DNA of 44,840 bases from UHGV virus genome UHGV-0716684, one strand, 5' to 3'. Of this stretch, positions 128 through 41,959 are shown piece after piece (the stretch's first letter is position 1; each line of letters starts with the position of its first letter). This DNA comes from a virus. Under the pieces are notes generated by a model. That model was not told the origin of the DNA, made no database searches, and was given only the letters and a program-made list of their open reading frames with translations. A program made the translations under genes and the position numbers.

Positions 128-156
128 ACTATAATAGCTAACTATTCAGATGTCAA
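128..156 (-). promoter_or_regulatory. sigma70-like promoter TTGACA-N17-TATAGT with operator-like GAATAG-N4-CTATT in the spacer
   Basis: Reverse complement of 128-156 reads TTGACAtctgaatagttagctatTATAGT; lies between two minus-strand genes. Confidence 0.5.
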
Positions 157-160
157 CACT

Positions 161-1423
161 TTATTCTAAATCTTCTTCACTAACCTTATTCCACTCAGGA
201 CGTTTGTCGTCCGCTGTTGTGACGCATGGCGCCCCCGGCTTACGTGTGATGAAGTCTTTCAGTTCTTCTTCTGGTATTACTTTAACCGCTTCGGTCGGCG
301 TCAGGAGCACTTCTTTAGTCAGCTTGTCGCCGTAGAGTTCTGCTACTTTCTCTGCGTCTTTCCACGCACGATTACCTGGGCGACCTTCCACCAGCTTGTA
401 CCCTGGCACTTTCTTACCGGAATGCAACGCAGCAGCCATAGCTTTTTCGACCTTATCGATGTGCTGGCGCAACAACGGCAACTTCTCATATTCAGCTACG
501 AGTTGCTCCGGCGTAAGTTCCAGCGCAAAGTCGTCCTCCAGTTCTTCGGCAAGTACAGAATTAACCGTCTTTGTACGCGCTGCGCACTGTTCAGAGAACC
601 GACACCACTGACAACCGTCGACAGACGGCTTAAAGTCCGACGCTTTCAGGTTCTTCTTGCCTCGGAAATACGCATCAAGGGCTAACAGTGCGCGTTTCTG
701 TGCGAACTTAGCGAACAGTTCCAGACCTTCAACCGAGATGTCCCACTCCGACGCGCCCCCGGCGTACGGCTGGAAGATGACCAGGCGCACTACTGATATG
801 TTATAACGTCTCTTGAGTCGGCGGTAAACACCGAGAGCGTAGAGCATAAGCTGCTTGTTTTCTTTCGCTTCGACATGATGCCGTCCTGTTTTCAGGTCGC
901 CGATAATGAGCATATGCTCGTCAGTGTTCGCCAGTTCCTGAACGGCAACAAGGTCAGCGGTTCCGAACGTCTCAACGCCTTCGTAACCCGGATGCAATAC
1001 CTCAGTAAGATTTACCCGCATTTCCAGCTTGGCGTAAGTCGCTACGTCGATAATCGCTTTGCAGTAGTCGGTGTACTTGCGCACCTGCTCAATCATGTCA
1101 GCCGTAATCAGTACCGCGCCTTTCATCTGGCTAATTAGCGCCTTAATCTGGCCTTTACCCTCGTCCAGCACGTAAGCGCCGACTTCACGCTCCAACGGCA
1201 ACGCAGTGCCGCGTATATAGGCGTTGAGATGGACCTCAGCTATGGTGTGCATGGCGGTTCCTGATACAGCGGCTTTACCCGACGTGTTAGGGATATCTTT
1301 TTCACACGCCAGCGACGCAGCGCATGACAGCCACTTTTTAGCGCCTGACGGTGACAGTAAGGCGTGTACATCATTATTGCCGCCTCGTTCTTTTAGTTTC
1401 ATGCTCTTAAACTCCCACCCCAT
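161..1423 (-). CDS. PD-(D/E)XK superfamily exonuclease (RecB/Cas4-like, DUF2800-like)
   Basis: 420 aa ORF; N-terminal HALLSPSGAKKWLSC motif, nuclease-core-like GTADLV / IIGDLKTG / QLMLYA segments, C-terminal cysteine cluster CQWCRFSEQC. Confidence 0.65.
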   Translation of the reverse strand: MGWEFKSMKLKERGGNNDVHALLSPSGAKKWLSCAASLACEKDIPNTSGKAAVSGTAMHTIAEVHLNAYIRGTALPLEREVGAYVLDEGKGQIKALISQMKGAVLITADMIEQVRKYTDYCKAIIDVATYAKLEMRVNLTEVLHPGYEGVETFGTADLVAVQELANTDEHMLIIGDLKTGRHHVEAKENKQLMLYALGVYRRLKRRYNISVVRLVIFQPYAGGASEWDISVEGLELFAKFAQKRALLALDAYFRGKKNLKASDFKPSVDGCQWCRFSEQCAARTKTVNSVLAEELEDDFALELTPEQLVAEYEKLPLLRQHIDKVEKAMAAALHSGKKVPGYKLVEGRPGNRAWKDAEKVAELYGDKLTKEVLLTPTEAVKVIPEEELKDFITRKPGAPCVTTADDKRPEWNKVSEEDLE

Positions 1424-1553
1424 TTAACTTTACGCGTTTTGCGCTTGTAGGCGCACGTGTCACCGCTACGGTTGAATATAATCAGCCAAGTCGAGTTGCT
1501 TACTCGAAAAGGCTGGTGACATTTAATAAAGAGAAGTCGCGCTTTACGGTTCG

Positions 1554-1703
1554 TCATTCTGCAATCTCCACAATACGCGCATTAGTGAAACTGCGTGCGA
1601 AGCCGAATGTGTAGAAGATGTACTGGGCTTCGTCCAAACGTGCGTAGCGGCTGTGTTCCTGGTCTTTACCGTCTATTTCTACAATTATCGCGTACCTTGT
1701 CAT
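1554..1703 (-). CDS. small hypothetical protein (49 aa)
   Basis: Hand-translated ORF MTRYAIIVEIDGK...; ATGA start/stop overlap with upstream gene; below ORF-track size cutoff. Confidence 0.3.
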   Translation of the reverse strand: MTRYAIIVEIDGKDQEHSRYARLDEAQYIFYTFGFARSFTNARIVEIAE

Positions 1704-1972
1704 ACCCTGCTCTCCCACTGGTCGATTAAATGTCGCGTCTTATGTTCGCAGTGCATAGCCCACCCATACATCGACTCAAAGACATAAAAGTCTGGCTTGG
1801 CGAATGTCGTGCGCTTAATCTGTGACACGTGACGGCCTATATCTTTAGGCCGCGGTACTTTGCCTAAGTAAGCCATCTCTTCCATCTGGTGCGCTCCGGA
1901 CGGCGCACGCAACAGCCATAGTGCCTCTGTGTTGTCCCGCCTGTCGACGGCGCGGTAGAGTTGGTAAATCAT
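1700..1972 (-). CDS. hypothetical protein
   Basis: 90 aa ORF in tightly packed minus-strand operon. Confidence 0.5.
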   Translation of the reverse strand: MIYQLYRAVDRRDNTEALWLLRAPSGAHQMEEMAYLGKVPRPKDIGRHVSQIKRTTFAKPDFYVFESMYGWAMHCEHKTRHLIDQWESRV

Positions 1973-2172
1973 TTCCTTACCCTCGCAGAATTAATCCACG
2001 TGAAAACATCGTCAATAGAAAAATCGCCGTCGAAAACCTTCTCAACTTTGCTGGCCTTCTTGACCGTCGTAGGGTGTTTGTTGTCTACCGCCTGAAATAC
2101 GTAAACCAAATCATTTTCAGCGACAACGCTGCCAGAAATCATAAGACCACTTTTCTTAGCTAAAATAGCCAT
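1969..2172 (-). CDS. hypothetical protein
   Basis: 67 aa ORF, start/stop overlap with neighbour. Confidence 0.5.
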   Translation of the reverse strand: MAILAKKSGLMISGSVVAENDLVYVFQAVDNKHPTTVKKASKVEKVFDGDFSIDDVFTWINSARVRK

Positions 2173-2183
2173 AATTCCGACCC

Positions 2184-2399
2184 TCAGTAGTACGGCGCAA
2201 ATTCACCTTTAACGGCGGGACGAATTGTATGTACCGCCGTTTTATCGGTTGGGTACATGTCCGCCCAATATTCGCCAGCGGCATAGTCAAGAGTCCCGCG
2301 CCACGCACCATTCAAAACAAAGAATTGCTGACAACCCACATATGAGTCACTTATTTCTACAACTATTTGTTCGTTTATTACTTTGTATACGTTACTCAT
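2184..2399 (-). CDS. hypothetical protein
   Basis: 71 aa ORF in operon context. Confidence 0.5.
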   Translation of the reverse strand: MSNVYKVINEQIVVEISDSYVGCQQFFVLNGAWRGTLDYAAGEYWADMYPTDKTAVHTIRPAVKGEFAPYY

Positions 2400-2442
2400 T
2401 ATTACGACCCTCAGTTAAAGCGGCCCGAAGGCCGCCAGATAA

Positions 2443-2943
2443 TTATTCTTCTTCGAAATACTTGTTCTTGATTGCTGTCAAGCGTTCCAGGTATTCAGCC
2501 AGGTCTTCGTCTTTAATCGCTGCAATCTTCATTTTCTTACCAGTGAACTCTTCCAGCAGTTCATCAGAATCGTCGCACGCGGCATCGCTAGGACCTTCAT
2601 TAATTGCATCGTCGATGGCCTGAATCTGGTCACGCAGAGACTTGTAATCGACTTCTTCTTTCTCTTCTTCCGGTTCTGGCGCAGGTTCCTCTACTTTAGC
2701 TTTACGCGGCTTGCGTTTTGGCTTCTCTTCCTCCGCCGGTTTAGTGTCAACTACGTCTTCACCTTCAACCGGGATTTCTTTTGTTGCTTCTTCAGCGCAC
2801 TCAGCTACCGCTTCTTTGGTGTACGATACCGTCTCTACTTCCAGCGGCGTGGCAACCTGAACAACTTGTTTCGCACTGTTCGCGGCAATCAGTTCATGTG
2901 CAACTACGAAACGTTCCAGCAATACTAAGAATTTCTCTAACAT
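2443..2943 (-). CDS. highly acidic low-complexity protein (E/K/P-rich linker)
   Basis: 166 aa ORF with long acidic stretches (EEEKPKRKPRKAKVEEPAPEPEEEKEE, DDSDELLEEF). Confidence 0.55.
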   Translation of the reverse strand: MLEKFLVLLERFVVAHELIAANSAKQVVQVATPLEVETVSYTKEAVAECAEEATKEIPVEGEDVVDTKPAEEEKPKRKPRKAKVEEPAPEPEEEKEEVDYKSLRDQIQAIDDAINEGPSDAACDDSDELLEEFTGKKMKIAAIKDEDLAEYLERLTAIKNKYFEEE

Positions 2944-2967: not shown

Positions 2968-3195
2968 TTACTCACCGTCGCCTTCAGTAAGGCTATCGTC
3001 TATTAGTTCAAATTTACCGTTTGAGTGTTGAATAGCTTCTTGCCCGCAATGGTCACAGACAACAAGTTTATCGAACCCATCAAACTCATCCCCTACTACG
3101 CAAGAAAGTACAAATTTATGTTTTGTGCACACTTCTTGCGGAGCGCCGAAAATTGCTCGAAAACCTTTAGCTATGGCCCCAGTGATTGTGTTCAT
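2968..3195 (-). CDS. small zinc-ribbon-like protein
   Basis: 75 aa ORF with C..H and CDHCGQ motifs; GAGGGG Shine-Dalgarno upstream; first gene after promoter at 3224-3252. Confidence 0.55.
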   Translation of the reverse strand: MNTITGAIAKGFRAIFGAPQEVCTKHKFVLSCVVGDEFDGFDKLVVCDHCGQEAIQHSNGKFELIDDSLTEGDGE

Positions 3196-3223: not shown

Positions 3224-3252
3224 ACTATAATAGCGAACTATTCACATGTCAA
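3224..3252 (-). promoter_or_regulatory. sigma70-like promoter TTGACA-N17-TATAGT with GAATAG-N4-CTATT operator-like palindrome
   Basis: Reverse complement reads TTGACAtgtgaatagttcgctatTATAGT; near-identical to the element at 128-156; divergent from the HTH gene at 3317. Confidence 0.5.
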
Positions 3253-3316
3253 TGGGCTTTTCTAAAATAATTAATATGGTACTATTCACATATCAACTGA
3301 CTAAGGAGTAACTGAC

Positions 3317-3532
3317 ATGCAACCATCTGAACTAGGCATCCGTGTAGAGCAACGCCGTAAAGAACTCGGTATCTCCCAGCGCCGTCTGGCTGTTCTGGCC
3401 GGCGTTTCCCAGGGCGCGATTAACCAGCTTGCACTCGGGGTAACTCAGGACGTACGCCCGGCAACGCTGTTTAAACTGGCGGAAGTGCTGGAAGTAGACG
3501 CCAAGTGGCTGGCGCTAGGTGAAGGGGCGTAA
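3317..3532 (+). CDS. XRE/Cro-family helix-turn-helix transcriptional regulator
   Basis: 71 aa; HTH signature ISQRRLAVLAGVSQGAINQL; AGGAG Shine-Dalgarno; operator-like palindromes in its own upstream region. Confidence 0.8.
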   Translation: MQPSELGIRVEQRRKELGISQRRLAVLAGVSQGAINQLALGVTQDVRPATLFKLAEVLEVDAKWLALGEGA

Positions 3533-3548
3533 CGCCCCTTTCTTTTTA
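3522..3548 (+). terminator. rho-independent terminator (stem aggggcg / cgcccct, then T-run)
   Basis: GC hairpin whose loop is the TAA stop of the HTH gene, followed by tttcttttt. Confidence 0.5.
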
Positions 3549-3549: not shown

Positions 3550-5772
3550 CTATTCCAAATCCTCCTCTGTCACCACCAGCATCTCATTTGGTTCGTATAG
3601 TGTCTTCGGCCTTAATCTATCACCTATTCTTTCGGGTATACGATATGTTCTCGGTACTACTTCGCCGTTAGCATCGCAACCAAGCATTAGTTCTCCATCT
3701 TTCAACATTTTATCAAGATGGGTGTTAGTCACAGAGAAGTCACCGGAACGAGCCACTATCTGCTGCTGAGTAAAACCGCGACCTGTGTCATCTGACTGTT
3801 GCAGGTCTTCCAGTGCCGAAAGTATTGACTCCTTCCTTACTTCATCCCTGCCGCGTTTAACTTCTTCCTTTACTTTTTGCTTACCTTCTTTCGTCAACCC
3901 TTCTTCCCGCTCTTTCTCCTCGTCAGTTTTGAACGGCTCGAAACCCCACGGCATCAACACAAGCGCCTTGTGTGGTTCAGGCAGGTCCAGGTTTACGATT
4001 GTGCCGTATTCCTCTGTGCTACCCAGGAACTCAACCGCTCGGTATTCTTTAGGCGGCGGCGCTTCACGGAACTGTACCGACTCCAGCACCATGCCAACCG
4101 TCTTCTGCTGAGGCCCGTGCTTGAATTTCGAGTGATATACGTTTATCTGACGGTCGGTTGCACGTTCGATTGTCAGTTCCACGTCAACACCCGCATACAG
4201 CGCCCCACTGCCGCGTGCTTTCTTTCCACCCTTCGGCGTATGGTGGACAACGCCTACTGCGGCTTTAGTTGCATCGCGTACTTCTTTCAGAATGGCGATA
4301 ACTTTACCCATGCCGATTGCTGTTGATGAACTGTTCTCGTCGAACTTATCAATCGTCAGTGCCAGGGTCTGGTTAAGGGTGTCGAACGCAACCATGCCAA
4401 TTGGCTCGTCGCCAGCAGTTTCGCGCATTAACTTAATCAGGCTTTTAAGTTTGCCGACTTCGCCCATATCGATGACGTGTACATAATCTTTACCTTCCCC
4501 GCCATATTTAGCCGCTAGTGCATCAATACGGGTGCGTGTAGCTGCGCCACCCTCACCATCAATATAGAAATGGTGGCAACGCTGGGTATCCGCCCCCGCA
4601 AACCTGTACCCGGCGGCGCTGAGGTACATCATCCCCAGCGTATAGAACGATTTGTACGTGCCAGATTCCCCGACGATATCCCAGATACAATCCGACGGCA
4701 TGTACCCCTCAACGACGAAATCAGCCTTTACCGGCTCCGGTAACTCGTCCTCCTCTGAGTCCTCGTCGTCTTCCAGGTCGTCGAGGCTGCAAGTTACTGG
4801 GTCCTCGTTCTCTGTGCGGTGTAGTTCTTCAATCTCTTCTTCCGGTAAATCAGGCAGAGCCGCACGAATGCTGTTAATGCTGATAGGTTGCTTATCTATG
4901 TTAAGCTCGTCGGGTAGGCCACACATACGCAGGGCCAAATGCTGCCTACGGTTAAGCTCGGTGCAAGCGCCGTTGTTTGTATGCTGGCAGACAAAGCGCA
5001 CTTCTTTACCGTCGAGCATTATGCTGGTGGAGCCCTTGCCTGTATGCAGATGTTCGTTAGGGCATGGCACTTCGTACCCGCGCCCGGAAGATAAAGCGTC
5101 AAGGCCAAGCTCGGCTTCGCAGAAGTGTGCTATATCCGCGTTAAGCCCATGCTCATCAGCGGCAAGTGTTTTAGCCTCACGCTTACGCAACCCCATCTCT
5201 TCGGCTTTCTTGATGTACCGCTCAGCACGGATAACACGCCCTTCTGTAACCGTTATCTTCGACTCTTTATGCGGCAGGTAGATAAGGCGGTTGCCGTCTT
5301 CTGTGCAGTGGTCGCGCAACGCTTCGTCTATTTCTAACTCTGCACAAATAGCACGTTGCACCATCCACGCGTCGTTAGAGTTAAACGGCGTGCGAGCTGG
5401 AACCAGAACGCGGAAAGCGTAATCTCCGTTTTTACATGCGTGCTGATGCGATGCCGTTGTGTGCAGAATATTGAAGAACGGCGCGTTCTTGAATTTGCGT
5501 GTCAGGTCGCGGTACTGAGTACGGTTGAGATGGTCGAAATCGAACTTAACCACACTGTCTTCCAGGATAGCGTTTTTACGGCGACCACCAACAGGCGCAA
5601 TAGCTTTCTGTTTAATCTTGGCAGCGTCGTACTCTTCCTTAGTCCATGACGGGTCCACGGATAAACGCTTCGATGTATCGCAGACATACTCGACAAACTG
5701 CTCCAGCGGCATTTCACGCGCTACAGGGTTTTTATCGAATGTGTTACGCAGCGTTGCAAAAACAATATTCAT
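3550..5772 (-). CDS. putative primase-helicase (primase-polymerase-like N-terminal domain, Zn-binding motif, C-terminal RecA/AAA_25-type ATPase)
   Basis: 740 aa; DFDH and SHQH motifs, CPNEHLH..C..C zinc motif, Walker A GESGTYKS, RecA-like C-terminal region. Confidence 0.7.
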   Translation of the reverse strand: MNIVFATLRNTFDKNPVAREMPLEQFVEYVCDTSKRLSVDPSWTKEEYDAAKIKQKAIAPVGGRRKNAILEDSVVKFDFDHLNRTQYRDLTRKFKNAPFFNILHTTASHQHACKNGDYAFRVLVPARTPFNSNDAWMVQRAICAELEIDEALRDHCTEDGNRLIYLPHKESKITVTEGRVIRAERYIKKAEEMGLRKREAKTLAADEHGLNADIAHFCEAELGLDALSSGRGYEVPCPNEHLHTGKGSTSIMLDGKEVRFVCQHTNNGACTELNRRQHLALRMCGLPDELNIDKQPISINSIRAALPDLPEEEIEELHRTENEDPVTCSLDDLEDDEDSEEDELPEPVKADFVVEGYMPSDCIWDIVGESGTYKSFYTLGMMYLSAAGYRFAGADTQRCHHFYIDGEGGAATRTRIDALAAKYGGEGKDYVHVIDMGEVGKLKSLIKLMRETAGDEPIGMVAFDTLNQTLALTIDKFDENSSSTAIGMGKVIAILKEVRDATKAAVGVVHHTPKGGKKARGSGALYAGVDVELTIERATDRQINVYHSKFKHGPQQKTVGMVLESVQFREAPPPKEYRAVEFLGSTEEYGTIVNLDLPEPHKALVLMPWGFEPFKTDEEKEREEGLTKEGKQKVKEEVKRGRDEVRKESILSALEDLQQSDDTGRGFTQQQIVARSGDFSVTNTHLDKMLKDGELMLGCDANGEVVPRTYRIPERIGDRLRPKTLYEPNEMLVVTEEDLE

Positions 5773-5966: not shown

Positions 5967-6257
5967 TTACCGTTTAGCCAACCCTTCCAGCAAATTTTTA
6001 TACTCTTCAAAATATTCCTCGACCAAATCATCGCCGAAATAGAAGTCGATATACTCGAGATTATCTCTTACGTTAAGCGATGCCGACATGGTGCTTAGTT
6101 GGCGTAAGCTAATTAGCTTCATTTCTGTTTCTACGCAGAAAGGCCGGTAGGTATCAAGATGGCAAGAGATATTGAAGCATAAAGCGAACTCTCCTGCCAC
6201 GGAGTGAACCATATACACTTCGTTTTCTGCTTTATTGTGGAAAATTACGCCTTTCAT
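5967..6257 (-). CDS. hypothetical protein
   Basis: 96 aa ORF. Confidence 0.5.
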   Translation of the reverse strand: MKGVIFHNKAENEVYMVHSVAGEFALCFNISCHLDTYRPFCVETEMKLISLRQLSTMSASLNVRDNLEYIDFYFGDDLVEEYFEEYKNLLEGLAKR

Positions 6258-6436
6258 TTCACGTTCTCCTTAATCCATGCTTCGACTTTATTACGGTCAA
6301 ATGTTCCCGGTAAACGGCGGCCCATAACCTTAATACAGCAGTCAGGGAATTTGCCGCTGCGCAACCAGTTATTAATTGTCTGACGTGTCACCCCGATACG
6401 TTCAGCTACTTCATTCTGCGTCATATAATGCGACAT
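6254..6436 (-). CDS. AlpA/excisionase-like small HTH DNA-binding protein
   Basis: Start placed at internal ATG (MSHYMTQNEVAERIGVTRQTINNWLRSGKFP...) preceded by GGAG; ORF track extends to 6550. Confidence 0.6.
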   Translation of the reverse strand: MSHYMTQNEVAERIGVTRQTINNWLRSGKFPDCCIKVMGRRLPGTFDRNKVEAWIKENVK

Positions 6437-6467: not shown

Positions 6468-6496
6468 AGTATAGGATAGCGGGAATGTAAAAGCAA
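6468..6496 (-). promoter_or_regulatory. candidate leftward promoter TTGCTT-N17-TATACT
   Basis: Reverse complement of 6468-6496; upstream of the AlpA-like gene. Confidence 0.4.
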
Positions 6497-6533
6497 CCAA
6501 TCTCTGTAATATTTAATCTTTACAAAAATGTTA

Positions 6534-6563
6534 TTGAAAGTTCTTGACACATGTTTGTATAAT
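6534..6563 (+). promoter_or_regulatory. candidate rightward promoter TTGAAA-N18-TATAAT
   Basis: Consensus -10 TATAAT at 6558-6563 with TTGAAA 18 bp upstream. Confidence 0.45.
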
Positions 6564-6762
6564 GGTTTTGGGACTTGTATATATTACGGAGTTGACGAAC
6601 CCTCCCCGAGGGATTCGTCAACCCCTCCCAGACAGCTGAGATGCTTGCCTTGGGGTTTAAGGATAAGTGTATCTAAATCTCATTTAAAGAAGTAACCCGC
6701 TGAAATATCTACTGTTTCTTAATGTGCCGTAGATTCGCAACCGTAAAAATGTAACGATTATT

Positions 6763-6789
6763 GGGCAGGCTTAAGCCTGCCCTTTAGTT
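6763..6789 (+). terminator. terminator-like hairpin (gggcaggc-ttaa-gcctgccc, then tttagtt)
   Basis: Perfect 8 bp GC-rich stem followed by a T-rich tract, inside the noncoding switch region. Confidence 0.4.
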
Positions 6790-6854
6790 ACCAAGTAATA
6801 AGAATAAAGGCACAACCCTCCCCGAAGAATCACAACGGCAACGTAACTATTCTC

Positions 6855-6883
6855 TTGCACACCCCAACATAATAGGTTACTAT
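6855..6883 (+). promoter_or_regulatory. conserved phage promoter TTGCAC-N17-TACTAT with AATAG-N4-CTATT operator-like palindrome
   Basis: TTGCACaccccaacataataggtTACTATtcac; near-identical copies at 20383-20411 and 29690-29718 (minus strand). Confidence 0.5.
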
Positions 6884-6917
6884 TCACTTATCGAAACGAG
6901 ACATAAGGAATTTAGAA

Positions 6918-8463: not shown

Positions 8464-8492
8464 TTGCACACTAAGATAGAATAGGCTACTAT
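8464..8492 (+). promoter_or_regulatory. promoter TTGCAC-N17-TACTAT with GAATAG-N4-CTATT operator-like palindrome
   Basis: TTGCACactaagatagaataggcTACTATtcat upstream of gene at 8525. Confidence 0.5.
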
Positions 8493-8524
8493 TCATTTAC
8501 ACAGACGAGACAGAGGAAAACGAA

Positions 8525-8710
8525 ATGTTAGAAGTTAAAGTTACAAAAAGAGACAGTGAACTGACTAAAGGCATCTTCAAAGTAGGAACCGTTATAGACC
8601 TGGATTTAGATGACATGGTTGTGTACCACGGTGGGATTGAGTGGAACGTGGCGCGGACCGACAACGGCTTCAAGTTACCAGGAAGTGAGACTCACTTTGC
8701 AGCAGTTTGA
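8525..8710 (+). CDS. hypothetical protein
   Basis: 61 aa ORF; GAGGAAAA upstream. Confidence 0.5.
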   Translation: MLEVKVTKRDSELTKGIFKVGTVIDLDLDDMVVYHGGIEWNVARTDNGFKLPGSETHFAAV

Positions 8711-9869: not shown

Positions 9870-10159
9870 GCCTCGCAACTGACATCCTGAAACGAAGCGG
9901 CCTTGCGCCGCTGTCGCCGAGAGCTAAAACACAGATATACAAGCGTCGGGGTAACGCGCTGTACCCAGAGATTCAGGCCAGGCGCAAAGCTGTCCGCGCC
10001 TGTGGATTCCAGAACGGGAAGGCCGTGAATCTCGGTGAGTTCAGGACAAAGGAACGCGCTGCAATCTCTAATCGGTTATTTAATTACTGGAAATCGCTGG
10101 GATACGATGATATCCCGACGAAACCACAGAGACGACAATACATCTGGAGACATAAATAA
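9866..10159 (+). CDS. basic hypothetical protein
   Basis: 97 aa ORF. Confidence 0.5.
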   Translation: MSLATDILKRSGLAPLSPRAKTQIYKRRGNALYPEIQARRKAVRACGFQNGKAVNLGEFRTKERAAISNRLFNYWKSLGYDDIPTKPQRRQYIWRHK

Positions 10160-10234
10160 ACCGCTATTAGGATAATTCCTACCCGTGGTATCCTCCAGTT
10201 ACTGCATACTTAATATGCACCTGGAGGATTCATC

Positions 10235-11534: not shown

Positions 11535-11555
11535 TCTGTTTTCTGTAATGACTAG

Positions 11556-11584
11556 TTGACTATTATCCTCGACCCTATTATATT
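11556..11584 (+). promoter_or_regulatory. sigma70-like promoter TTGACT-N17-TATATT
   Basis: Located after the tandem terminators and before the small-gene block at 11619. Confidence 0.45.
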
Positions 11585-13390: not shown

Positions 13391-13414
13391 AAGCCCTCTA
13401 CCGAGGGCTTTTCT
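13391..13414 (+). terminator. rho-independent terminator
   Basis: aagccctc-tacc-gagggctt followed by ttctgt. Confidence 0.5.
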
Positions 13415-13508
13415 GTACATCCCGCCCAATCCCCTTATATAATCCATTTAGACGCGTAGGGCGCGTCTGGTGCGCTCTGATGGTCAGACGCATATGCAAG
13501 GGGATTCT

Positions 13509-16799: not shown

Positions 16800-18212
16800 T
16801 CACTTATTCCATACCAATTTCTCTTGTCCGCTATCCCATATGCGGGATACACCTTCCGCAGCGTACCATTCCGACTGTGTAAGCCCCTCTGGCGCTTTGT
16901 TCCATTTTTGCCGTGATTCTGTTTTAGTCGCATTGTTTACGACGATGCGGAATCCACATCTCACAGAAGCCTTTTTAAACCCCGCTGATAGGTATGATTC
17001 TCCGGTAAATAAATCCCGGTCAGTGTAGGTAAAACCGTCGGTGATGCTATAACGGCGCACGGCATAGGCCCATAGCTTCGACAGCCCGCCTACCACCGAA
17101 CACGACGTAGCGTACCGCACAAGCTCCCATTCACCTTTTCTACACGTCAGCGTCATTACCGCAACAATCTTTTCTTCATAAACGAGGCTGATATACCTCG
17201 TCGAGTTACGGAATCCTTGAATGTGGTTCTCCTCCAGGAAACGCTCTGCACATATTTTGTTAATCTCTTTTACATGGCATTTGCGGGCGAAAACTCGCAA
17301 AGAAGAGACGCCGACGGAATGGCCGATTATTTTCTTTATTATTTCTTTTTTATGCAGCCATAGCTCATCCCTTATTGACAGGAGCCGGAACCCTCTTTCC
17401 TCAACGGCGACTCTTTTCTCCATGTGATACTTTCTCCCCTTCCCGGCAGCTTCACTGTGCCAGTACAGGCCGTTTATTTCTATCGCCAGATTATGTTGCG
17501 GTATTAAAATATCTATCTCTCTTGGGTGGATAAGACTTCTATCATTCCGATGATATTCCACCCCCATGCTATCGAGAAATTCACAGACTTCATCCTCCAC
17601 TTTACTACGCCCGAACGACGCGCACCGCGGGCACCCTCTACCCTGAAAAATGTTACCAAGCGTAGAGGCCCATTCATGGCCTTTTTGACACCTCAGTGTC
17701 GATGGCGCACGGCAGATATCCCCTGAATAAGACACCAGTTCAAAACCAGTGCCGCGTAACCTTTCCTCTATTTCTCCGATCTCGAGCCTTTTTCTGTTAG
17801 TGCTGCAATTCGGGCAATGACTTTTACCCCTTAAAATGTCGCTGCCGGTAGCGGACCAGACGAACCCGCATTTACATCTGAACGTTGATTTCCCACTTAC
17901 AGCACCTGCGTAATTAAGGCATTCAACCCCATTAGGCCACTCTGTTACTTTCGCCCGTTTTTCCGCAGCGTAGCATTGGGGGCAACCATGACCGTTTAGG
18001 ACGGTATTGGCCTTTGTCTCCCACACATGGCCACTACGGCAGCGGAATTTAGACTTAAGTTTAGAGTGGCCTGCATACTCAATTACTACTATACCCCGTG
18101 ACGCCAGTCTCAGGTTTACATCTTCTTCAGTTAAACGTCTGGACCCCATTAAAATACCCTCCGCTTCTTCTAGTATAAAGATTGTGTATATACATGTACC
18201 ACAGCAAGACAT
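16800..18212 (-). CDS. putative multi-domain homing-type endonuclease (zinc-ribbon repeats plus PD-(D/E)XK Vsr/DUF559-like nuclease motif)
   Basis: Repeated C..GH.W...G.GCP.C units; motif EIDILIPQHNLAIEINGLYWHSE; opposite strand inside the packaging/head module. Confidence 0.55.
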   Translation of the reverse strand: MSCCGTCIYTIFILEEAEGILMGSRRLTEEDVNLRLASRGIVVIEYAGHSKLKSKFRCRSGHVWETKANTVLNGHGCPQCYAAEKRAKVTEWPNGVECLNYAGAVSGKSTFRCKCGFVWSATGSDILRGKSHCPNCSTNRKRLEIGEIEERLRGTGFELVSYSGDICRAPSTLRCQKGHEWASTLGNIFQGRGCPRCASFGRSKVEDEVCEFLDSMGVEYHRNDRSLIHPREIDILIPQHNLAIEINGLYWHSEAAGKGRKYHMEKRVAVEERGFRLLSIRDELWLHKKEIIKKIIGHSVGVSSLRVFARKCHVKEINKICAERFLEENHIQGFRNSTRYISLVYEEKIVAVMTLTCRKGEWELVRYATSCSVVGGLSKLWAYAVRRYSITDGFTYTDRDLFTGESYLSAGFKKASVRCGFRIVVNNATKTESRQKWNKAPEGLTQSEWYAAEGVSRIWDSGQEKLVWNK

Positions 18213-19793: not shown

Positions 19794-19820
19794 AAGGCCC
19801 CGAAAGGGGCCTTAATTTTA
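19794..19820. terminator. conserved terminator hairpin aaggccccgaaaggggcctt
   Basis: Perfect 8 bp stem, GAAA loop, T-rich flank; same hairpin at 27155 and 39396. Confidence 0.6.
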
Positions 19821-20357
19821 ATAAGCTAACCAAGAACCTCTTTCTGTGAACATCAATTTATTTCCTTTTAAGAGATTCAGAACCGCAGGGATAACTTGTA
19901 TGTTTTCTGCGACGTGCAGCCCTGAGACAGTTTTAGCCCGCAACGGCAGCATGTGGTCGATATGCCATAAGAAACCTGTTTCACCCGCTCGCAGTTGACA
20001 TAGCTCCTGCGCTTCTTCGAATACTAATAGGTCAAATTCATCATTCCTGATGTTTATACTCCTGGCTCTTTTTGCCGTTTTATACTTCAACCTTTGGGCT
20101 TTCCTGGCGGTTTTGTTTTTCTTACGGTACTCCGCATCAATTTCGGCTAATCGGTCTTTATTTTCTTGCCTCCATTTTGCGTTTTTAGCCGCCCAAGAAA
20201 CAGCGTTTCGTTCTCGGTACGATTTTTGTATCTCTTTAGTGCACTCATAGCACCCGGTGCGAACATGCCTTTTCGCAACATGCCCGCGTTTACACGGTTT
20301 GCCAGTGAAGTAATAATCATCCCCCGCGGCTATGGCTTCTGAACGCTTAGTGAGCAT
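19818..20357 (-). CDS. HNH-type endonuclease
   Basis: 179 aa; CKRGH..C.EC zinc-binding N-terminus and WHIDHMLPL...N HNH-like core. Confidence 0.6.
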   Translation of the reverse strand: MLTKRSEAIAAGDDYYFTGKPCKRGHVAKRHVRTGCYECTKEIQKSYRERNAVSWAAKNAKWRQENKDRLAEIDAEYRKKNKTARKAQRLKYKTAKRARSINIRNDEFDLLVFEEAQELCQLRAGETGFLWHIDHMLPLRAKTVSGLHVAENIQVIPAVLNLLKGNKLMFTERGSWLAY

Positions 20358-20382
20358 AAAACCCCCTGTTTAAGTTAACCGA

Positions 20383-20411
20383 ATAGTACCCTATTATATT
20401 GGTGTGTGCAA
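20383..20411 (-). promoter_or_regulatory. promoter TTGCAC-N17-TACTAT with GAATAG-N4-CTATT palindrome
   Basis: Reverse complement TTGCACacaccaatataatagggTACTATtc; upstream of the HNH gene. Confidence 0.5.
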
Positions 20412-20686
20412 ACTATTTGTTTACATATTCCAGTTATTCCACTCAATTGTAAATGTTGGAATAAACTATTCGAATAGTTGACTTTTCACTAAAAATATGA
20501 TAAGCTCCACCTGAGCTTGTGAAGTATGAACAAGCGACCGCGGCGCGGGCAGGTAACGGAGCCGGATGTTAAGTCCGAGTGTAGTTACGCTGACGCGTTC
20601 GGAAGGGCCGTACTCTATTGCTTGTGTAAAAAGTAACTGGTTTACTGAGATTACGCCGTTTCTATGTTTAAATGATAAGGACTAGC

Positions 20687-20712
20687 GCCCCGCTTTAAGG
20701 CGGGGCTTTACT
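20687..20712 (+). terminator. terminator-like hairpin (gccccgc-tttaag-gcggggc, then tttacttat)
   Basis: GC stem followed by T-rich tract, located in the leader just upstream of the i-spanin RBS. Confidence 0.45.
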
Positions 20713-21226: not shown

Positions 21227-21308
21227 TTGCCTTGCATGTTGGAATAATTTATTCTTGACATGTAAATCCGGGTGGCCCGGGTTCCAACGTCCAGGGGACA
21301 TACTGACT

Positions 21309-27154: not shown

Positions 27155-27179
27155 AAGGCCCCGAAAGGGGCCTTTTCTT
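27155..27179. terminator. conserved bidirectional terminator hairpin aaggccccgaaaggggcctt
   Basis: T-rich tract on both strands; convergent gene ends. Confidence 0.65.
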
Positions 27180-27396
27180 ACTCACTTTTGAACGGCATTT
27201 CGTAGAAGTTAGTTAACTGGCCTCGGTCCCTTCGTTCTGTCATTTCTTTAGAGGCCTCTTCCTTACTACTAACGGCATAAATATCAACCCACTCGTCCCA
27301 TTCTTCGTCGTATACTCGGATTACATATATTGTTTTCATAATATTTTCACTCATCAATATTGCTTCGGTATTCCCGTAACTTCTCCAGACTTTCAA
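27178..27396 (-). CDS. hypothetical protein (accessory island)
   Basis: 72 aa ORF on opposite strand within tail module. Confidence 0.45.
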   Translation of the reverse strand: MKVWRSYGNTEAILMSENIMKTIYVIRVYDEEWDEWVDIYAVSSKEEASKEMTERRDRGQLTNFYEMPFKSE

Positions 27397-27577
27397 TTGC
27401 TTCTGCTAAGTCGGTTCCGGTGTCCTTGTGTCCGCGCAAGCCCATGCACAATAACTTCTTTAACGCATGCTGTAGCGCCGGGTCACGGATATCGAAAGCA
27501 CGGAGCACATCATAAACGTCTACTGTCATGGTGCTGCCGTGAGTGTTTGTCATTGTGCGGTTGTATTTTGAAGTCAT
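27347..27577 (-). CDS. hypothetical protein (accessory island)
   Basis: 76 aa ORF. Confidence 0.45.
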   Translation of the reverse strand: MTSKYNRTMTNTHGSTMTVDVYDVLRAFDIRDPALQHALKKLLCMGLRGHKDTGTDLAEAIESLEKLREYRSNIDE

Positions 27578-27586
27578 CTCTACACC

Positions 27587-28087
27587 CTATTTATAACCGT
27601 TGTTGAATGTTGTCAGTCCATGATTTATGTGAAACCTATTAGCCACAGACATGTAAATTCTTTCAGCGAAAGCGTCCTCTATTCTGTCAAATGTTTTACT
27701 AATCTGCTTACCGTTGACAACGGCATAAGCTCTCCACTTAGTTTTTCCTTTCCGCGCCACACCCGTAACTCCAGAGGTATTATCTTTGCGCCTTTTCACG
27801 TTAACCATGTTGTCCCTTCTAGATTTGCATGACAGGTTTTCAATTCTGTCGTCACAGGTATCATGGTTAGTATGGTCTATGACAAATCCTTTTGGAATCT
27901 TACCTGAGAACATCTCATACACCACCCTCGACCTTTTAAACTTACGGTTACCAAACATGACATACCAATAGCCGTTTTTACACAAACTCCCGGCCACATC
28001 ACCTATATTCACATCGTTACGGCGACATGATTTGACTTTCCAGTATAGGACGCCATTTTTGTAGCTAAAAACCTCACTCCAATCCAT
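27587..28087 (-). CDS. HNH homing endonuclease with AP2 DNA-binding domain
   Basis: HNH_3 motif VIDHTNHDTCDDRIENLSCKSRRDN; AP2-like SGVTGVARKGKTKWRAYAVVNGKQISKTFDRIEDA. Confidence 0.75.
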   Translation of the reverse strand: MDWSEVFSYKNGVLYWKVKSCRRNDVNIGDVAGSLCKNGYWYVMFGNRKFKRSRVVYEMFSGKIPKGFVIDHTNHDTCDDRIENLSCKSRRDNMVNVKRRKDNTSGVTGVARKGKTKWRAYAVVNGKQISKTFDRIEDAFAERIYMSVANRFHINHGLTTFNNGYK

Positions 28088-28102
28088 ACTTTCACCTATA
28101 TT

Positions 28103-29257
28103 TTAGTATGTCGATTTTGGGTTTATGTCTCGCAGCATTTCGACAGGTATACTTATGCGGGACACCTCCCCGTAACGTTTGTGGTATGTAATCACATTTG
28201 CGCTTCTACCTGAATAATAGCCGCCCTTACTAGAATACTCATCTTTAGCCGCTAATGTCTGGTGTTGCTCAACAATTAGCAGATTAGTCTCTTTAACCGC
28301 CCTGTGATGGAGGTGCCCCGTATGGACATATGTGAACTTACACCGCCCGTACATCTCCCGGTACTTACCGATTATAGCCTGCTCTACCTTAGCAAAGTTA
28401 GAACAATGCCCGTGATGTGCTGAAATCATACAATCCCCGAACTTGTACGCATAATACGGTGACACCTCCCGGTTAACCTCGACGCGAGGCTCATTTGTGT
28501 ATACCTCGTAGAACATCTCCCGGAGCCACAGAGAAGAACTAAGGTCGTGGTTACCTTCACAGATAAGAAGTTTAACCTTCTTGTGTTTTCGCAAGCACAG
28601 TGAGACAGCCAGCTTGATAACCTTAATGGCCGTGCGTATCATTTTAAACAGGCGACTATCCGCTGAAAGAATATGACCGCTCATAGGGGTCATTGCCTTC
28701 ATGCCGTCGTAGTGCATTTGGTCCCCTAAGAAGTTAATGATACATTCACCACTCTGTGGACTCATACAAACCGCACTGTTGAACCAGTCAACCGCGAGAG
28801 ATTCCGCGATTGTGGTGTCGTAATCATCCCCGCCTTCTTCTTGACACGCCAACATCCCTATGTGATGGTCTGTTATTGTGTAAAGATTTAATAAGTCGTC
28901 ATCTGTCCCATTTTTGGCCAAAGTGACTGGCTTATACTTGGGTAAATCTTTTTTCATCTCGTCCACAACGGCTTTCATTAACTCGACCTGACGTTCCGCA
29001 TCGGTGTCGGTCTTAACCCATTGCAGTTTAGTGTTGCCTAACTCATCAACCAGAGACGATGTACCCTTAATCTTGTAGCCGTCCGGCACAAGGTGGCTAA
29101 CGTCACGCCCGTGGCCTACGCCTTTCTTCGCTAGTTTCGCTTTACGGATACGAATAACGCGGTCTGAGATGCCGTATTTACGAGCAATGTCGATATTCTT
29201 CATCCCAGCGTTCAATTCTTCCTGTAACTGTTCGTCGGTTATTTTCTTCTGGGCCAT
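28103..29257 (-). CDS. HTH-fused calcineurin-like metallophosphoesterase
   Basis: N-terminal HTH (IDIARKYGISDRVI); phosphoesterase motifs TDHH, GDQMHYDG, GNHD, HTGHLHH. Confidence 0.65.
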   Translation of the reverse strand: MAQKKITDEQLQEELNAGMKNIDIARKYGISDRVIRIRKAKLAKKGVGHGRDVSHLVPDGYKIKGTSSLVDELGNTKLQWVKTDTDAERQVELMKAVVDEMKKDLPKYKPVTLAKNGTDDDLLNLYTITDHHIGMLACQEEGGDDYDTTIAESLAVDWFNSAVCMSPQSGECIINFLGDQMHYDGMKAMTPMSGHILSADSRLFKMIRTAIKVIKLAVSLCLRKHKKVKLLICEGNHDLSSSLWLREMFYEVYTNEPRVEVNREVSPYYAYKFGDCMISAHHGHCSNFAKVEQAIIGKYREMYGRCKFTYVHTGHLHHRAVKETNLLIVEQHQTLAAKDEYSSKGGYYSGRSANVITYHKRYGEVSRISIPVEMLRDINPKSTY

Positions 29258-29322
29258 GCCTATTTCCTCGTGTTTAGGATTTGTCCTATTTAACCACAGT
29301 GCATTCCTTTAAATAAAGGCAA

Positions 29323-29649
29323 CTATTTACTTTCTGCGCCTATTGACCATCCGGTTGTAACCATTTGCAAACGAGTGGCTAACAGTAGGCTGCTGAAAGT
29401 GGGGCTGTTAACATCTACAGACTCAACAACAAGGGATGTCATCAATTCAAGACCAAGGCCAGACCCGCCAGCGCGCACGGCAGCATTACATTCGCGAATA
29501 GCAGCGGTTTTAAACGCACTAACGGCAGACGGAGGGGCTGAATCAAGCACCCCGGAAGTTACTAAAGGGGTTTCACTATATACTTGCTCACACTGGGACC
29601 CTACCGCGCAAAAAGAAATAAGACCCATGGCTATGATTAATTTACGCAT
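29323..29649 (-). CDS. small secreted/periplasmic protein
   Basis: 108 aa; N-terminal signal peptide MRKLIIAMGLISFCAVG; first gene downstream of promoter at 29690-29718. Confidence 0.5.
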   Translation of the reverse strand: MRKLIIAMGLISFCAVGSQCEQVYSETPLVTSGVLDSAPPSAVSAFKTAAIRECNAAVRAGGSGLGLELMTSLVVESVDVNSPTFSSLLLATRLQMVTTGWSIGAESK

Positions 29650-29689
29650 TTTAATTCCTTATTTAAGTTAATAACGTTGGTGTAAGTGA

Positions 29690-29718
29690 ATAGTACCCTA
29701 TTATATTGGGGTGTGCAA
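29690..29718 (-). promoter_or_regulatory. promoter TTGCAC-N17-TACTAT with GAATAG-N4-CTATT palindrome
   Basis: Reverse complement TTGCACaccccaatataatagggTACTATtcac; essentially identical to 6855-6883. Confidence 0.5.
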
Positions 29719-39395: not shown

Positions 39396-39419
39396 AAGGC
39401 CCCGAAAGGGGCCTTTTCT
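39396..39419. terminator. conserved bidirectional terminator hairpin aaggccccgaaaggggcctt
   Basis: Identical to hairpins at 19794 and 27155; between convergent genes. Confidence 0.65.
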
Positions 39420-39557
39420 CTACTCTTCTGATAACTTCTCCAGTACAAACGCCAGTTGCGCATTAGCGGCATCTCTCTGCTGGCGTAGACGTAGAACCTC
39501 TTCTTCGAGTTCCTTGATACGTTTTTGCAATGCCGGAATCGGGGCTATGATGTTCAT
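39420..39557 (-). CDS. small coiled-coil protein (45 aa)
   Basis: Hand-translated MNIIAPIPALQKRIKELEEEVLRLRQQ...; ATGA overlap with helicase stop. Confidence 0.35.
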   Translation of the reverse strand: MNIIAPIPALQKRIKELEEEVLRLRQQRDAANAQLAFVLEKLSEE

Positions 39558-40978
39558 TTCTTACCTCGTCTCTTCATGTAATTAAGCAATTCTTCCTGCA
39601 CCGATTTCTTCTCGTCTGTACGCGCGGCAACAACCTCGTCCAGCGTGTCTTTAGCAACGATGTGATAGAGGAACACCGGCCGCTCGCGCCCTGCCTGTTT
39701 CTGGCGGACCGGGCCTATACGCTCGACAACCTGCAAATAGTGCTCAAGGTTCCAGCCTTGCGAGATGAATGCCAGATGATGCCCGCCGTCCTGTAAATTC
39801 AAACCATGCCCGGCTGACGCAGGATGCACGCATAAGATTTCGATTTCCCCTCGGTTCCATGCTTCCATCTGCTTATTGCCCTTAGCGCCTTTGGCAAACG
39901 CCTGGGCCTGCGGGAATCGCTTAAGGATGCGCTCCAGTTCGTGCTTAAACTGATAGGCCACCAATAACGGAGCGCCCTGTAACTCCTCAACAATCGACTC
40001 AAGCGCATCCAGTTTCGTGTCGTGAACTTTCTCCCAGTCTTTGGTTGCTTCTCCGTCTGGCCCCGATACATACACGGCACCGGATGCAATCTGTAGGCAC
40101 TTCGACGTCTTCGCCGCAGCGTTAGCCGCTTCCACTTCCCCGCTCTCCAGTTCTGCGAATAGCTTCTCCTCCATATCGATGTACGCCTGACGCGCCTTCT
40201 TCGGTAGGTCGATTTCAACCGGTACAATAATCGGCGCTTCACAACCAAACCACTCGGCCGCGTCAATCGTGAGACTAATGTCTTTCATCTTCTGATGAAT
40301 CTCATTATCTGCGCCAGGGCGGGCGTGGTATTCACGTGCCATCGCCGATTTGCCCTTCTGTACCGAGTTAAACCAGCGGTCTGTGAATGCTGTGTATGAA
40401 GAACCGAGGCGCTCTCCAGCGTCGATAAACCAGTTCTGACCCCACAAGTCCTTAAGGCCGTTCGGTGACGGTGTACCGGTAAGGTTAATGAAACGCTTAA
40501 CCTTACCGAACGCCACTTTGCTTAACGCCTTTGCTCTCTTACTACCGCCAGAACGACTACGGAATGATTTCAACTTCGTGCTTTCATCGGCGACGATAAC
40601 CGTAAAAGGCCAGTCGTCTTTGCCGTAGTAGTCGATAAGCCACTCGATAACTTCGTAGTTGGTGCACACCACGTTAGCGTCTGACTCCAGCGCCGCGATG
40701 CGGCGCTTCTCTGAACCGGTCGCATCGACGACACGCAGACAAGGGAAGTTCCATTTCTCTTGTTCTGCAGGCCATGTACCTGACGCAACACGCAACGGCG
40801 CGAGGATTAACACGCGGTCATCATCATTAAGTTGGCCGTTGCGGAACAGTCTGTTTAACGCCCACAGTACGCTGCCAGTCTTACCCGCACCCATGCTCGC
40901 CCATATGTTACAGCGATGGTGCCGCAGCATGAACGAGGTCATAAGCTTCTGGTACTCGCGCCTTTGAAACTTACTCAT
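39554..40978 (-). CDS. superfamily II DNA helicase (SNF2/RAD54-like)
   Basis: 474 aa; Walker A GAGKTG, DEST box (VADESTKLK), motif III LTGTP. Confidence 0.8.
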   Translation of the reverse strand: MSKFQRREYQKLMTSFMLRHHRCNIWASMGAGKTGSVLWALNRLFRNGQLNDDDRVLILAPLRVASGTWPAEQEKWNFPCLRVVDATGSEKRRIAALESDANVVCTNYEVIEWLIDYYGKDDWPFTVIVADESTKLKSFRSRSGGSKRAKALSKVAFGKVKRFINLTGTPSPNGLKDLWGQNWFIDAGERLGSSYTAFTDRWFNSVQKGKSAMAREYHARPGADNEIHQKMKDISLTIDAAEWFGCEAPIIVPVEIDLPKKARQAYIDMEEKLFAELESGEVEAANAAAKTSKCLQIASGAVYVSGPDGEATKDWEKVHDTKLDALESIVEELQGAPLLVAYQFKHELERILKRFPQAQAFAKGAKGNKQMEAWNRGEIEILCVHPASAGHGLNLQDGGHHLAFISQGWNLEHYLQVVERIGPVRQKQAGRERPVFLYHIVAKDTLDEVVAARTDEKKSVQEELLNYMKRRGKK

Positions 40979-41465
40979 TGGGTCGTATTCCTTTGTCTAA
41001 TGTTTCAAGTGCCGATACCCTGGCGGCTATTGCTTCTTCTCTTGTAGAGTAATAGCCTAAATGCTTCTTTATTCCGTCAATAGTCATATACGCGGCCCAT
41101 TTATTATGCGACTCTCGCCACCTAACGCCAGGAAAGCCGCTTTTATTACTCGACCTAATTTTCTGCCATCCAGCTTTTGCGACGTTACCTTGTTGTGTCA
41201 CTAACTGTAGATTTTCCAATCGGTTATCATCGTACACGCCATTTATGTGGTCAATTTGCATTCCTTCTGGAATCTTGCCGTTGTGCATCTCCCAGACTAT
41301 TCTATGCGCTTGGTATATTTTACCTTTGAACTTAATACGCCTATGACCCTTGTTTACCGAGCTTCCTGCTGTACTGCCTACCGATACTCTCGGCCCCGGT
41401 CTTACTCGCCAAATGAGGGTGCCGTTGTCGTAGGTGAATATCCTTCCCCATGCTATTTCACACAT
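40971..41465 (-). CDS. HNH homing endonuclease with AP2 DNA-binding domain (paralog of 27587-28087)
   Basis: HNH_3 motif QIDHINGVYDDNRLENLQLVTQQGN; AP2-like SGFPGVRWRESHNKWAAYMTIDGIKKHLGYY. Confidence 0.75.
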   Translation of the reverse strand: MCEIAWGRIFTYDNGTLIWRVRPGPRVSVGSTAGSSVNKGHRRIKFKGKIYQAHRIVWEMHNGKIPEGMQIDHINGVYDDNRLENLQLVTQQGNVAKAGWQKIRSSNKSGFPGVRWRESHNKWAAYMTIDGIKKHLGYYSTREEAIAARVSALETLDKGIRPNE

Positions 41466-41644
41466 AATACTAATTCCTTACGCCCAAACGCTGTAACGTT
41501 ACCAGTTACATCTTCGATAACCAGTTTACCGTTCGACTCGACGAACACCGTATCAACGGCAACAGGCTGGCGTGTCTTAACGTTGAAAATCATGTCGCCA
41601 GGTACGATGTCACGTGCTGGTTTGCGGTCATATTCGTGTTTCAT
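41453..41644 (-). CDS. hypothetical protein
   Basis: 63 aa ORF downstream of promoter at 41677-41705. Confidence 0.45.
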   Translation of the reverse strand: MKHEYDRKPARDIVPGDMIFNVKTRQPVAVDTVFVESNGKLVIEDVTGNVTAFGRKELVLCVK

Positions 41645-41674
41645 TTCTCAATTCCTTATATTGTTGGTGTAGGA

Positions 41675-41959
41675 CTAACTATAATAGTTAGCTATTAGGT
41701 CGTCAACCTGTTTAAACGAACCTACGACAAAAACATTCGCGCCACGTTTACGCATCCGCTCGTGCTCTCGTAGTTGGTGCGGGTCTGGCTTCGTATTTTC
41801 GTCTTTCTTCACCTCTACGAACCAGATGATGCCACCGGGGAGAATTACCAGCAGGTCAGGAGCACCCGAACGTCCTTCGTAGGAGAGCTTACGAACGAGG
41901 CCCCCCAGGGCCTCGAATCGGTCTTTTGCGTATTTCTGAATCTTGCCTTCCGGGGTCAT
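41675..41959 (-). CDS. VRR-NUC domain nuclease
   Basis: 94 aa; PDLLVILPGGIIWFVEVKK core typical of VRR-NUC / PD-(D/E)XK. Confidence 0.65.
   Translation of the reverse strand: MTPEGKIQKYAKDRFEALGGLVRKLSYEGRSGAPDLLVILPGGIIWFVEVKKDENTKPDPHQLREHERMRKRGANVFVVGSFKQVDDLIANYYS
41677..41705 (-). promoter_or_regulatory. sigma70-like promoter TTGACG-N17-TATAGT with AATAG-N4-CTATT palindrome
   Basis: Reverse complement TTGACGacctaatagctaactatTATAGT; overlaps a 17-bp perfect palindrome ctaactataatagttag. Confidence 0.45.

Follow-up and report, generated by a model that had tools for sequence, protein, structure and literature searches.

A palindrome dispersed over the promoters of the Kagunavirus genome UHGV-0716684, and a 434 Cro-like protein as its probable ligand

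In the virus genome UHGV-0716684 the same short inverted repeat, AATAG-N4-CTATT, recurs in one promoter after another, and this raises the question of what the element is and which protein reads it. The window, that is, the whole stretch of 44,840 nucleotides that was analysed, was compared with related phages, and we conclude that the palindrome is very probably a protein-binding operator. The more complete proposal is that it is bound by a 71-residue protein of the XRE family, which is encoded at 3317-3532 and resembles the Cro protein of phage 434, and that this protein represses the promoters carrying the site; judging from sequence, we assign to this full model a probability of about 0.6.

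By Megablast the window belongs to Kagunavirus (Guernseyvirinae), a group of virulent siphophages of Escherichia coli; its closest relative is JSSK01 (97% identity), followed by XY1 and Bas70. It looks like a complete, circularly permuted genome, since the gene encoding the single-stranded DNA-binding protein (SSB; start at 73, minus strand) exits the left end of the window. The open reading frame (ORF) 161-1423 is the PD-(D/E)XK exonuclease of the Kagunavirus group and not an integrase, and the annotations of the relatives fetched include neither an integrase nor a CI-type repressor nor an RNA polymerase.

Exact copies of the palindrome start at seven positions (133, 3229, 6871, 8480, 20382, 29689 and 41683), whereas 100 dinucleotide-preserving shuffles gave 0.04 on average; with up to one mismatch the window has 13 matches, against 1.21 expected. 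Among all the palindromes of the form 5-N4-5 in the window, AATAG-N4-CTATT ranks first in over-representation (z about 15 with second-order Markov shuffles), and it is also the top family in an unbiased search of the intergenic DNA for repeated 14-mers. Intergenic DNA makes up 7.6% of the window when a curated gene map is used, and six of the seven exact sites are found there (binomial P about 1e-6), the seventh, 41683, overlapping the last codons of ORF 41675-41959. Four of the six one-mismatch copies (3273, 10155, 11551 and 20473) are in promoter contexts, and the two located deep in genes (5599 and 36516) are about the number expected by chance; the concern of the earlier note that the motif could be equally frequent inside coding regions can be set aside, given that the palindrome is not spread through coding DNA. 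The eight promoter sites listed in that note are real and lie in promoters, the copy at 3273 with one mismatch; their coordinates were each one base longer than the 14-bp core, and the flanking (G) and (C) that had been included in the motif are not general, the base before AATAG being T or G. An exact palindrome is also present in a tail gene of phage Sciku (L003, position 21426), with the one-mismatch copy 36516 at the same place in the window; both were discarded as operators because they encode a conserved peptide, EIE(S/N)YF, and represent a coding coincidence.

The proposal that the palindrome falls within the RNA polymerase footprint was borne out: each site is located inside a sigma70-type promoter, just upstream of a correctly oriented gene. 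The hexamers are at 17-bp spacing, and the palindrome adopts one of three registers, with its centre at -12.5, -18.5 or -33.5:

Class A, TTGCAC-17-TACTAT, centre at -12.5, the right half-site being part of the -10: 6871 and 8480 (rightward), 20382 and 29689 (leftward), and also 3273, at the extended -10 promoter of the XRE gene.
Class B, TTGACA/G-17-TATAGT, centre at -18.5, the palindrome wholly in the spacer: 133, 3229 and 41683, all leftward.
Class C, TTGACT-17-TATATT/TAAGCT, centre at -33.5, the palindrome straddling the -35: 11551 and 20473, both with one mismatch.

The individual sites and the units that they precede are as follows:

133-146, unstranded: exact operator AATAGCTAACTATT, class B, in the spacer of the leftward SSB/DNA polymerase promoter.
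128-156, minus strand: the promoter itself, TTGACA-17-TATAGT, upstream of the Gp2.5-like SSB gene (start at 73).
3229-3242, unstranded: exact operator AATAGCGAACTATT in the spacer of the promoter 3224-3252 (TTGACA-17-TATAGT).
3224-3252, leftward: promoter divergent from the XRE gene, which drives 2968-3195 on through the exonuclease gene.
3273-3286, unstranded: one-mismatch operator AATATGGTACTATT, which covers the extended -10 of the XRE promoter (TGgTACTAT, hexamer 3280-3285); predicted autoregulation site of this gene.
3317-3532, plus strand: gene for the 71-residue HTH_3/XRE protein, homologue of 434 Cro and proposed operator-binding repressor.
3521-3541, plus strand: intrinsic terminator that ends the monocistronic XRE unit.
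6855-6884, plus strand: class A promoter TTGCAC-17-TACTAT with an exact operator at 6871-6884, driving the rightward cluster of small early genes from 6918.
8464-8493, plus strand: class A promoter with an exact operator at 8480-8493, driving 8525 on, the first gene being a homologue of the Gp54 antiviral trigger.
10155-10168, unstranded: one-mismatch copy AATAAACCGCTATT, a weak candidate, within the spacer of 10147-10176, a poor promoter-like sequence that precedes the holin genes.
11551-11584, plus strand: class C, one-mismatch operator ACTAGTTGACTATT (11551-11564) over the -35 of TTGACT-17-TATATT (11556-11584).
20382-20411, minus strand: class A promoter with an exact operator at 20382-20395, driving 19818-20357, the endonuclease VII-like antisense moron set.
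20466-20506, plus strand: CTATT half-site (20466-20477) and class C one-mismatch operator (20473-20486), at the -35 of TTGACT-17-TAAGCT (20478-20506).
29689-29718, minus strand: class A promoter with an exact operator at 29689-29702, driving 29323-29649 and the phosphoesterase-like 28103-29257.
41678-41706, minus strand: class B promoter TTGACG-17-TATAGT with an exact operator at 41683-41696, driving 41453-41644 and the helicase 39554-40978.

The everted copy CTATTCGAATAG that had been described at 20466-20477 is indeed present, and corresponds to an extra CTATT half-site beside the one-mismatch site 20473-20486. The units preceded by an operator are those of the regulator gene, two clusters of small early genes, three replication/recombination operons (exonuclease, SSB plus DNA polymerase, and helicase) and two antisense morons of the late region. 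The palindrome is absent from the promoter-like intergenic sites at 6534-6563, at about 6470-6500 (minus strand) before the HTH_17 gene, at 13414-13443 (terminase) and at 21255 (scaffold). Given that it occurs in three registers, we consider the palindrome a module separate from the sigma70 hexamers.

This separation is also apparent in related phages. When 24 SSB promoter loci of Kagunavirus and Jerseyvirus were aligned, the half-site CTATT was invariant and AATAG was replaced only by AATCG or ACTAG, whereas the four positions that separate the motif from the -35 appeared in six forms and the central N4 in seven. Since the half-sites are kept in the spacer, which sigma70 does not read, this pattern looks like the footprint of a dimeric protein. 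The scan of related phages that had been suggested to assess conservation thus gave a positive answer, as did the other computational checks put forward in the earlier note: both half-sites are kept at orthologous promoters of Kagunavirus, Jerseyvirus and Serratia phage Tsm2, with variation in the central four and the flanking bases. In Jerseyvirus the symmetry is extended to TAATAG-N4-CTATTA. The class C arrangement of 11551 recurs in wksl3 at 5687, and at 30793 of the same phage, orthologous to 29689 of the window, the register of the palindrome is displaced by 3 bp. The copies per genome are:

Sciku (Kagunavirus): 8 exact copies.
wksl3 (Jerseyvirus, proteins 50-90% identical): 3 exact and 6 one-mismatch copies, at orthologous promoters.
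Tsm2 (Serratia): 4 copies with up to one mismatch, against 0.35 expected.
phiEap-2 (Enterobacter): 10 copies with up to one mismatch, against 0.8 expected, AATAG and AATAC half-sites being mixed.

Searching 2.9 million IMG/VR contigs for exact matches to the class B promoter with its operator (17 fixed bases) yielded 72 stretches; among the 71 new loci, 66 encode relatives of the window phage and 5 are unrelated singletons, approximately the number expected by chance.

As the earlier note had anticipated, the XRE protein is the best candidate for the ligand, on account of its homology with 434 Cro, its presence in every motif-bearing lineage, the two copies in its own region, and the half-site switch of Pantoea phage AH01 described below. 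The window encodes two predicted DNA-binding proteins, this one (HTH_3) and the product of 6254-6436 on the minus strand (HTH_17), and when the presence or absence of all the window proteins was recorded in six whole genomes, the XRE protein was the only predicted DNA-binding protein common to all the motif-bearing lineages. It matches Pfam HTH_3 (PF01381) with E = 2.3e-12 and 47 bits (cut-off 23), and its best phmmer match in the PDB is 434 Cro (E = 2e-6, full length, residues 6-68). The structure model has five helices and a mean confidence (pLDDT) of 84, and its top Foldseek match is 2cro, again 434 Cro (39% identity, TM 0.72-0.77). The glutamine that opens helix 3 is invariant in the XRE homologues aligned; in 434 Cro and the 434 repressor, whose operators are 14 bp long (ACAA-N6-TTGT), the glutamine at this place reads the outermost A. 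The XRE gene stands as a unit on its own, complete with promoter, weaker operator and terminator; two palindrome copies lie within the 121-bp region upstream of 3317, and the divergent neighbour 2968-3195 encodes a 75-residue protein of no assigned function that is not CI-type. An XRE homologue is encoded in 486 INPHARED records.

The phage AH01 offers a natural variant of the pair. Its genome carries AATAC-N4-GTATT at 10 sites with up to one mismatch, eight of them intergenic and in promoter contexts, and its XRE gene is flanked by one exact and one one-mismatch copy of this version. When AATAN-N4-NTATT was counted, the Kagunavirus genomes gave seven or eight G/G pairs and AH01 five C/C pairs; both half-sites have been switched in concert at many promoters, and in the class A-like promoters the -10 TACTAT has become TAGTAT, which accommodates the switch. 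The AH01 XRE homologue, encoded at 42509-42727 of MZ501269, has the helix MTQGGIGH, versus VSQGAINQ in Kagunavirus. A simple co-variation of helix 3 with the motif was nonetheless discarded: the comparison of Kagunavirus with Jerseyvirus, and the motif-less lineages, gave no clean residue-to-base rule, and only the AH01 switch is clear.

The place of the motif in other phages points in the same direction. Intact or degenerate, it adjoins the phage XRE gene in most of the lineages examined: Klebsiella phage VLCpiS11a has one AATAC-type copy, at the promoter divergent from XRE, and Cornellvirus, SE1 and Hafnia phage TS33 have just one degenerate copy, beside the XRE gene. The copy next to the regulator gene looks ancestral and the spread to many promoters specific to certain lineages, which favours a phage factor linked to the XRE gene over a host factor.

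In the mechanism that we propose, a dimer of the XRE protein would dock its two recognition helices on the two AATAG half-sites, separated by one turn of the DNA, leaving the central four bases unread. Because every copy is within the polymerase footprint (over the -10, the spacer or the -35), an occupied operator should block the host sigma70 polymerase; it is from the positions of the sites that repression is suggested as the direction of control. After infection the host polymerase would fire the early, replication/recombination, antisense moron and regulator promoters, the accumulating regulator would then turn them off, and its own promoter, with the weaker one-mismatch site, would be the last to be closed. 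Given that the phage is virulent and that neither a CI-type repressor nor an integrase was found, the system would operate as a Cro-only temporal switch and not as an immunity system. A bolder version, which we consider unlikely, is that this orphan Cro is the master timer of a strictly lytic phage, with an operator at almost every early and middle promoter, those of the antisense morons of the late region included, and that it also excludes related virulent phages of other genera that superinfect, the AATAC of AH01 being a case of escape or heteroimmunity; since the Kagunavirus and Jerseyvirus operators are identical, the early promoters of a superinfecting relative would be silenced by the resident regulator.

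Several observations weigh against the proposal that the XRE protein binds the palindrome and represses. The half-site is identical in Kagunavirus and Jerseyvirus though helix 3 differs (SQGAINQ versus SQSLITH), homologues of the protein are also encoded by Cornellvirus, SE1, VLCpiS11a and TS33, all of them without the dispersed motif, and Tsm2 has dispersed copies, none of them recognisable beside its XRE gene. The class A promoters match the sigma70 consensus at just 8 of 12 positions, so that a positive role is possible. In the only RNA sequencing (RNA-seq) study of a Kagunavirus, phage K1B4, the HTH_17 gene was one of four early genes, a primase-adjacent DNA-binding gene was middle, and the DNA polymerase and Imm genes were late; the late class of these two genes does not fit an early shut-off, in a study whose sampling (30-min latent period, multiplicity of infection of 100, up to 120 min) was far too coarse for questions of timing.

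The binder could be another phage protein, either the HTH_17/AlpA-like protein, acting as an activator or as an antiterminator of the Q/AlpA type that is loaded at the promoter, or a small protein without a recognisable DNA-binding domain, and many small ORFs of the window have no assigned function; we judge this unlikely. The main candidate is the following:

6254-6436, minus strand: 60-residue HTH_17 (AlpA/excisionase-like) protein, Pfam HTH_17 with E = 1.6e-8; a rival binder, probably outside the system.

This protein is 82% identical between Kagunavirus and Jerseyvirus, whose motif is identical, as compared with only about 50% for the XRE protein; its gene is behind an operator-free promoter and belongs to the early class in K1B4, and AlpA of Pseudomonas reportedly binds an element inside a promoter. 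However, it was found only in these two genera: tblastn and a family hidden Markov model were negative in Tsm2, phiEap-2 and AH01, all of which bear the motif, so that the AlpA-like protein does not co-occur with the element as an antiterminator of that type should. Moreover, its putative recognition helix TRQTINNW is changed to STMTLNRW in two Kagunavirus loci (L019 and L021) that nevertheless retain 5 exact sites, its Pfam match is HTH_17, with Phage_AlpA not among the 13 Pfam matches listed, and no window protein with a DNA-binding signature other than XRE is common to all the motif-bearing genomes. The AlpA-like protein, which had been put forward earlier as the alternative regulator, is accordingly disfavoured. 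Less probable still is that a transcription factor of the Enterobacterales hosts binds the palindrome and ties early transcription to host physiology. All the motif-bearing phages infect related hosts, the half-site variant ACTAG (11551 and L024) gives ACTAGTTAACTA, which matches the core of the trp operator, and ATAG/CTAT is reminiscent of OxyR half-sites; yet TrpR needs CTAG and the spacing of OxyR is ATAG-N7-CTAT, and both resemblances were dismissed as the half-site or the spacing does not fit. We know of no E. coli factor with the consensus AATAG-N4-CTATT. Cornellvirus and SE1 share the Salmonella hosts of Jerseyvirus and have homologous promoters, yet lack the motif; the half-sites of AH01 changed in concert along with its own regulator, and the copy beside the phage XRE gene is not what a host factor would lead one to expect.

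It is equally improbable, in our opinion, that there is no dedicated binder and that the repeat is a shared promoter consensus, originated by duplication of a promoter cassette or recognised by a phage RNA polymerase. This is how the sequence has been listed: seven "phage RNA polymerase" promoters with the consensus tgAATAGTa-ccTATTat-T were described in fBC-Eco01 (Kagunavirus; PMC9825357), the conserved element TAATAGTACCCTATTATGTT was reported as a phage-specific regulatory element in SGP-C (Jerseyvirus; PMC8790156), and seven PHIRE promoters were reported for Golestan (PMC7203180). The class A promoters are alike beyond the palindrome (TTGCACAC, ATAATAGG), as a cassette duplication would leave them, and in this class one half of the palindrome falls on the -10. 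In contrast, the class B palindrome is confined to the spacer, unread by sigma70, and is kept while its neighbours vary, the -35 and -10 hexamers are ordinary sigma70 ones at 17-bp spacing, and three registers, two-fold symmetry and the G/G to C/C switch of AH01 would not be expected of a promoter consensus. A phage RNA polymerase promoter in particular was rejected, since the annotations of the relatives fetched contain no gene of this kind and the sigma70 hexamers TTGACA/TATAGT and TTGCAC/TACTAT are present. Two further candidates were also discarded, an RNA-level hairpin, because the palindrome is upstream of the predicted start sites and its stem is just 5 bp, and a restriction or methylation site, because the copies are confined to promoters.

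Thus the repeated sequence was already known as a PHIRE "phage promoter", without a mechanism. Its symmetry, the registers, the link with XRE and the repressor model are in none of the fBC-Eco01, SGP-C and Golestan papers and were not found in our literature searches, and searchable papers give no regulatory mechanism for Guernseyvirinae. In kind, the XRE protein and the palindrome are most likely a standard repressor-operator pair of the Cro type, which a lytic phage employs across its genome. Few phages are isolated as often for therapy and food safety as the Guernseyvirinae (Kagunavirus, Jerseyvirus); if the model is true, the temporal programme of several hundred sequenced phages would be readable from sequence via one protein-DNA pair, and the reading of the element as a phage RNA polymerase promoter would be corrected. 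The natural G-to-C operator switch of AH01 would lend itself to a specificity swap. The gain would be in the annotation and understanding of Guernseyvirinae, with no new principle.

Other features of the window deserve mention. Three antisense morons are placed inside the late structural region, all on the minus strand (16800-18212, 19818-20357 and 27178-29649), and contain an HNH or homing endonuclease, an endonuclease VII-like protein, and an Imm/phosphoesterase block; operator-bearing promoters are found at two of the three, and the HNH moron gene is missing in all six relatives compared. The first gene after the 8464 promoter, 8525-8710 (plus strand), matches Pfam PF25180, "phage antiviral trigger protein Gp54", with E = 5e-26. 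At 6534-6790 (plus strand) a promoter close to consensus, TTGAAA-18-TATAAT (11 of 12 matches), precedes some 220 nt without an ORF, which contain a long hairpin and end at the intrinsic terminator 6763-6782; this stretch folds much better than shuffles (z = -4.6) and has no Rfam match, Rfam and tRNA scans of the window being negative, and it may represent a small RNA or a terminated leader immediately before the early promoter 6855. At 20478-20712 (plus strand) the promoter TTGACT-17-TAAGCT precedes an untranslated stretch of about 200 nt and then a strong terminator (20687-20706), which is placed directly before the spanin, scaffold and capsid genes. The fold z-score of this region is only -1.8, and its layout resembles the PR'-tR' late leader of lambdoid phages, which needs an antiterminator; that the HTH_17/AlpA-like protein plays this role is speculation. 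Another conserved palindrome, GGAATAATTTATTC, directly adjoins a TTGACA ahead of the scaffold gene (21241-21260, also 20458 and 21231), with extra GGAATA/TATTCC copies close to it. It occurs in Sciku (6336), phiEap-2 (12669 and three more), VSiP (7725), wksl3 (40014) and SE1 (32055), is kept even in genera without the AATAG palindrome, and probably serves a different regulator, one of late genes.

Compared with known systems, the proposed regulon shares with P1 C1 and with the "stoperators" of gp71 of mycobacteriophage L5 the use of one small regulator and many short sites, genome-wide, over many transcription units. The sites of C1 and gp71 are asymmetric and both serve lysogenic immunity, and the L5 stoperators, all oriented alike, halt elongation from within transcribed regions; in the present phage, which is lytic, the sites form palindromes within promoters, before the start sites, and deep intragenic copies are about as many as chance predicts. 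The controller (C) proteins of restriction-modification systems and SinR are also close, given that C.AhdI, C.BclI and SinR are among the top structural matches to the XRE model and act as small dimers on promoter-overlapping palindromes, with timed expression; unlike the XRE protein as proposed here, a C protein serves its own operon, at one or two promoters, and both activates and represses. With respect to 434, the window lacks what defines a lambdoid CI/Cro immunity switch, that is, a CI divergent from cro and an integrase, and has neither a tripartite right operator (OR) nor a bistable switch; the half-site is AATAG, and about ten operators are dispersed over 44 kb, versus six in two clusters. 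In the other aspects the resemblance with 434 Cro is close: the XRE protein is a homologue in full-length sequence and fold, with five helices and the glutamine of helix 3 kept; the operators are 14 bp long and two-fold symmetric, with conserved outer bases that include the outermost A and a variable centre; and the sites overlap core elements of the promoters, with copies in the divergent promoter region of the regulator itself.

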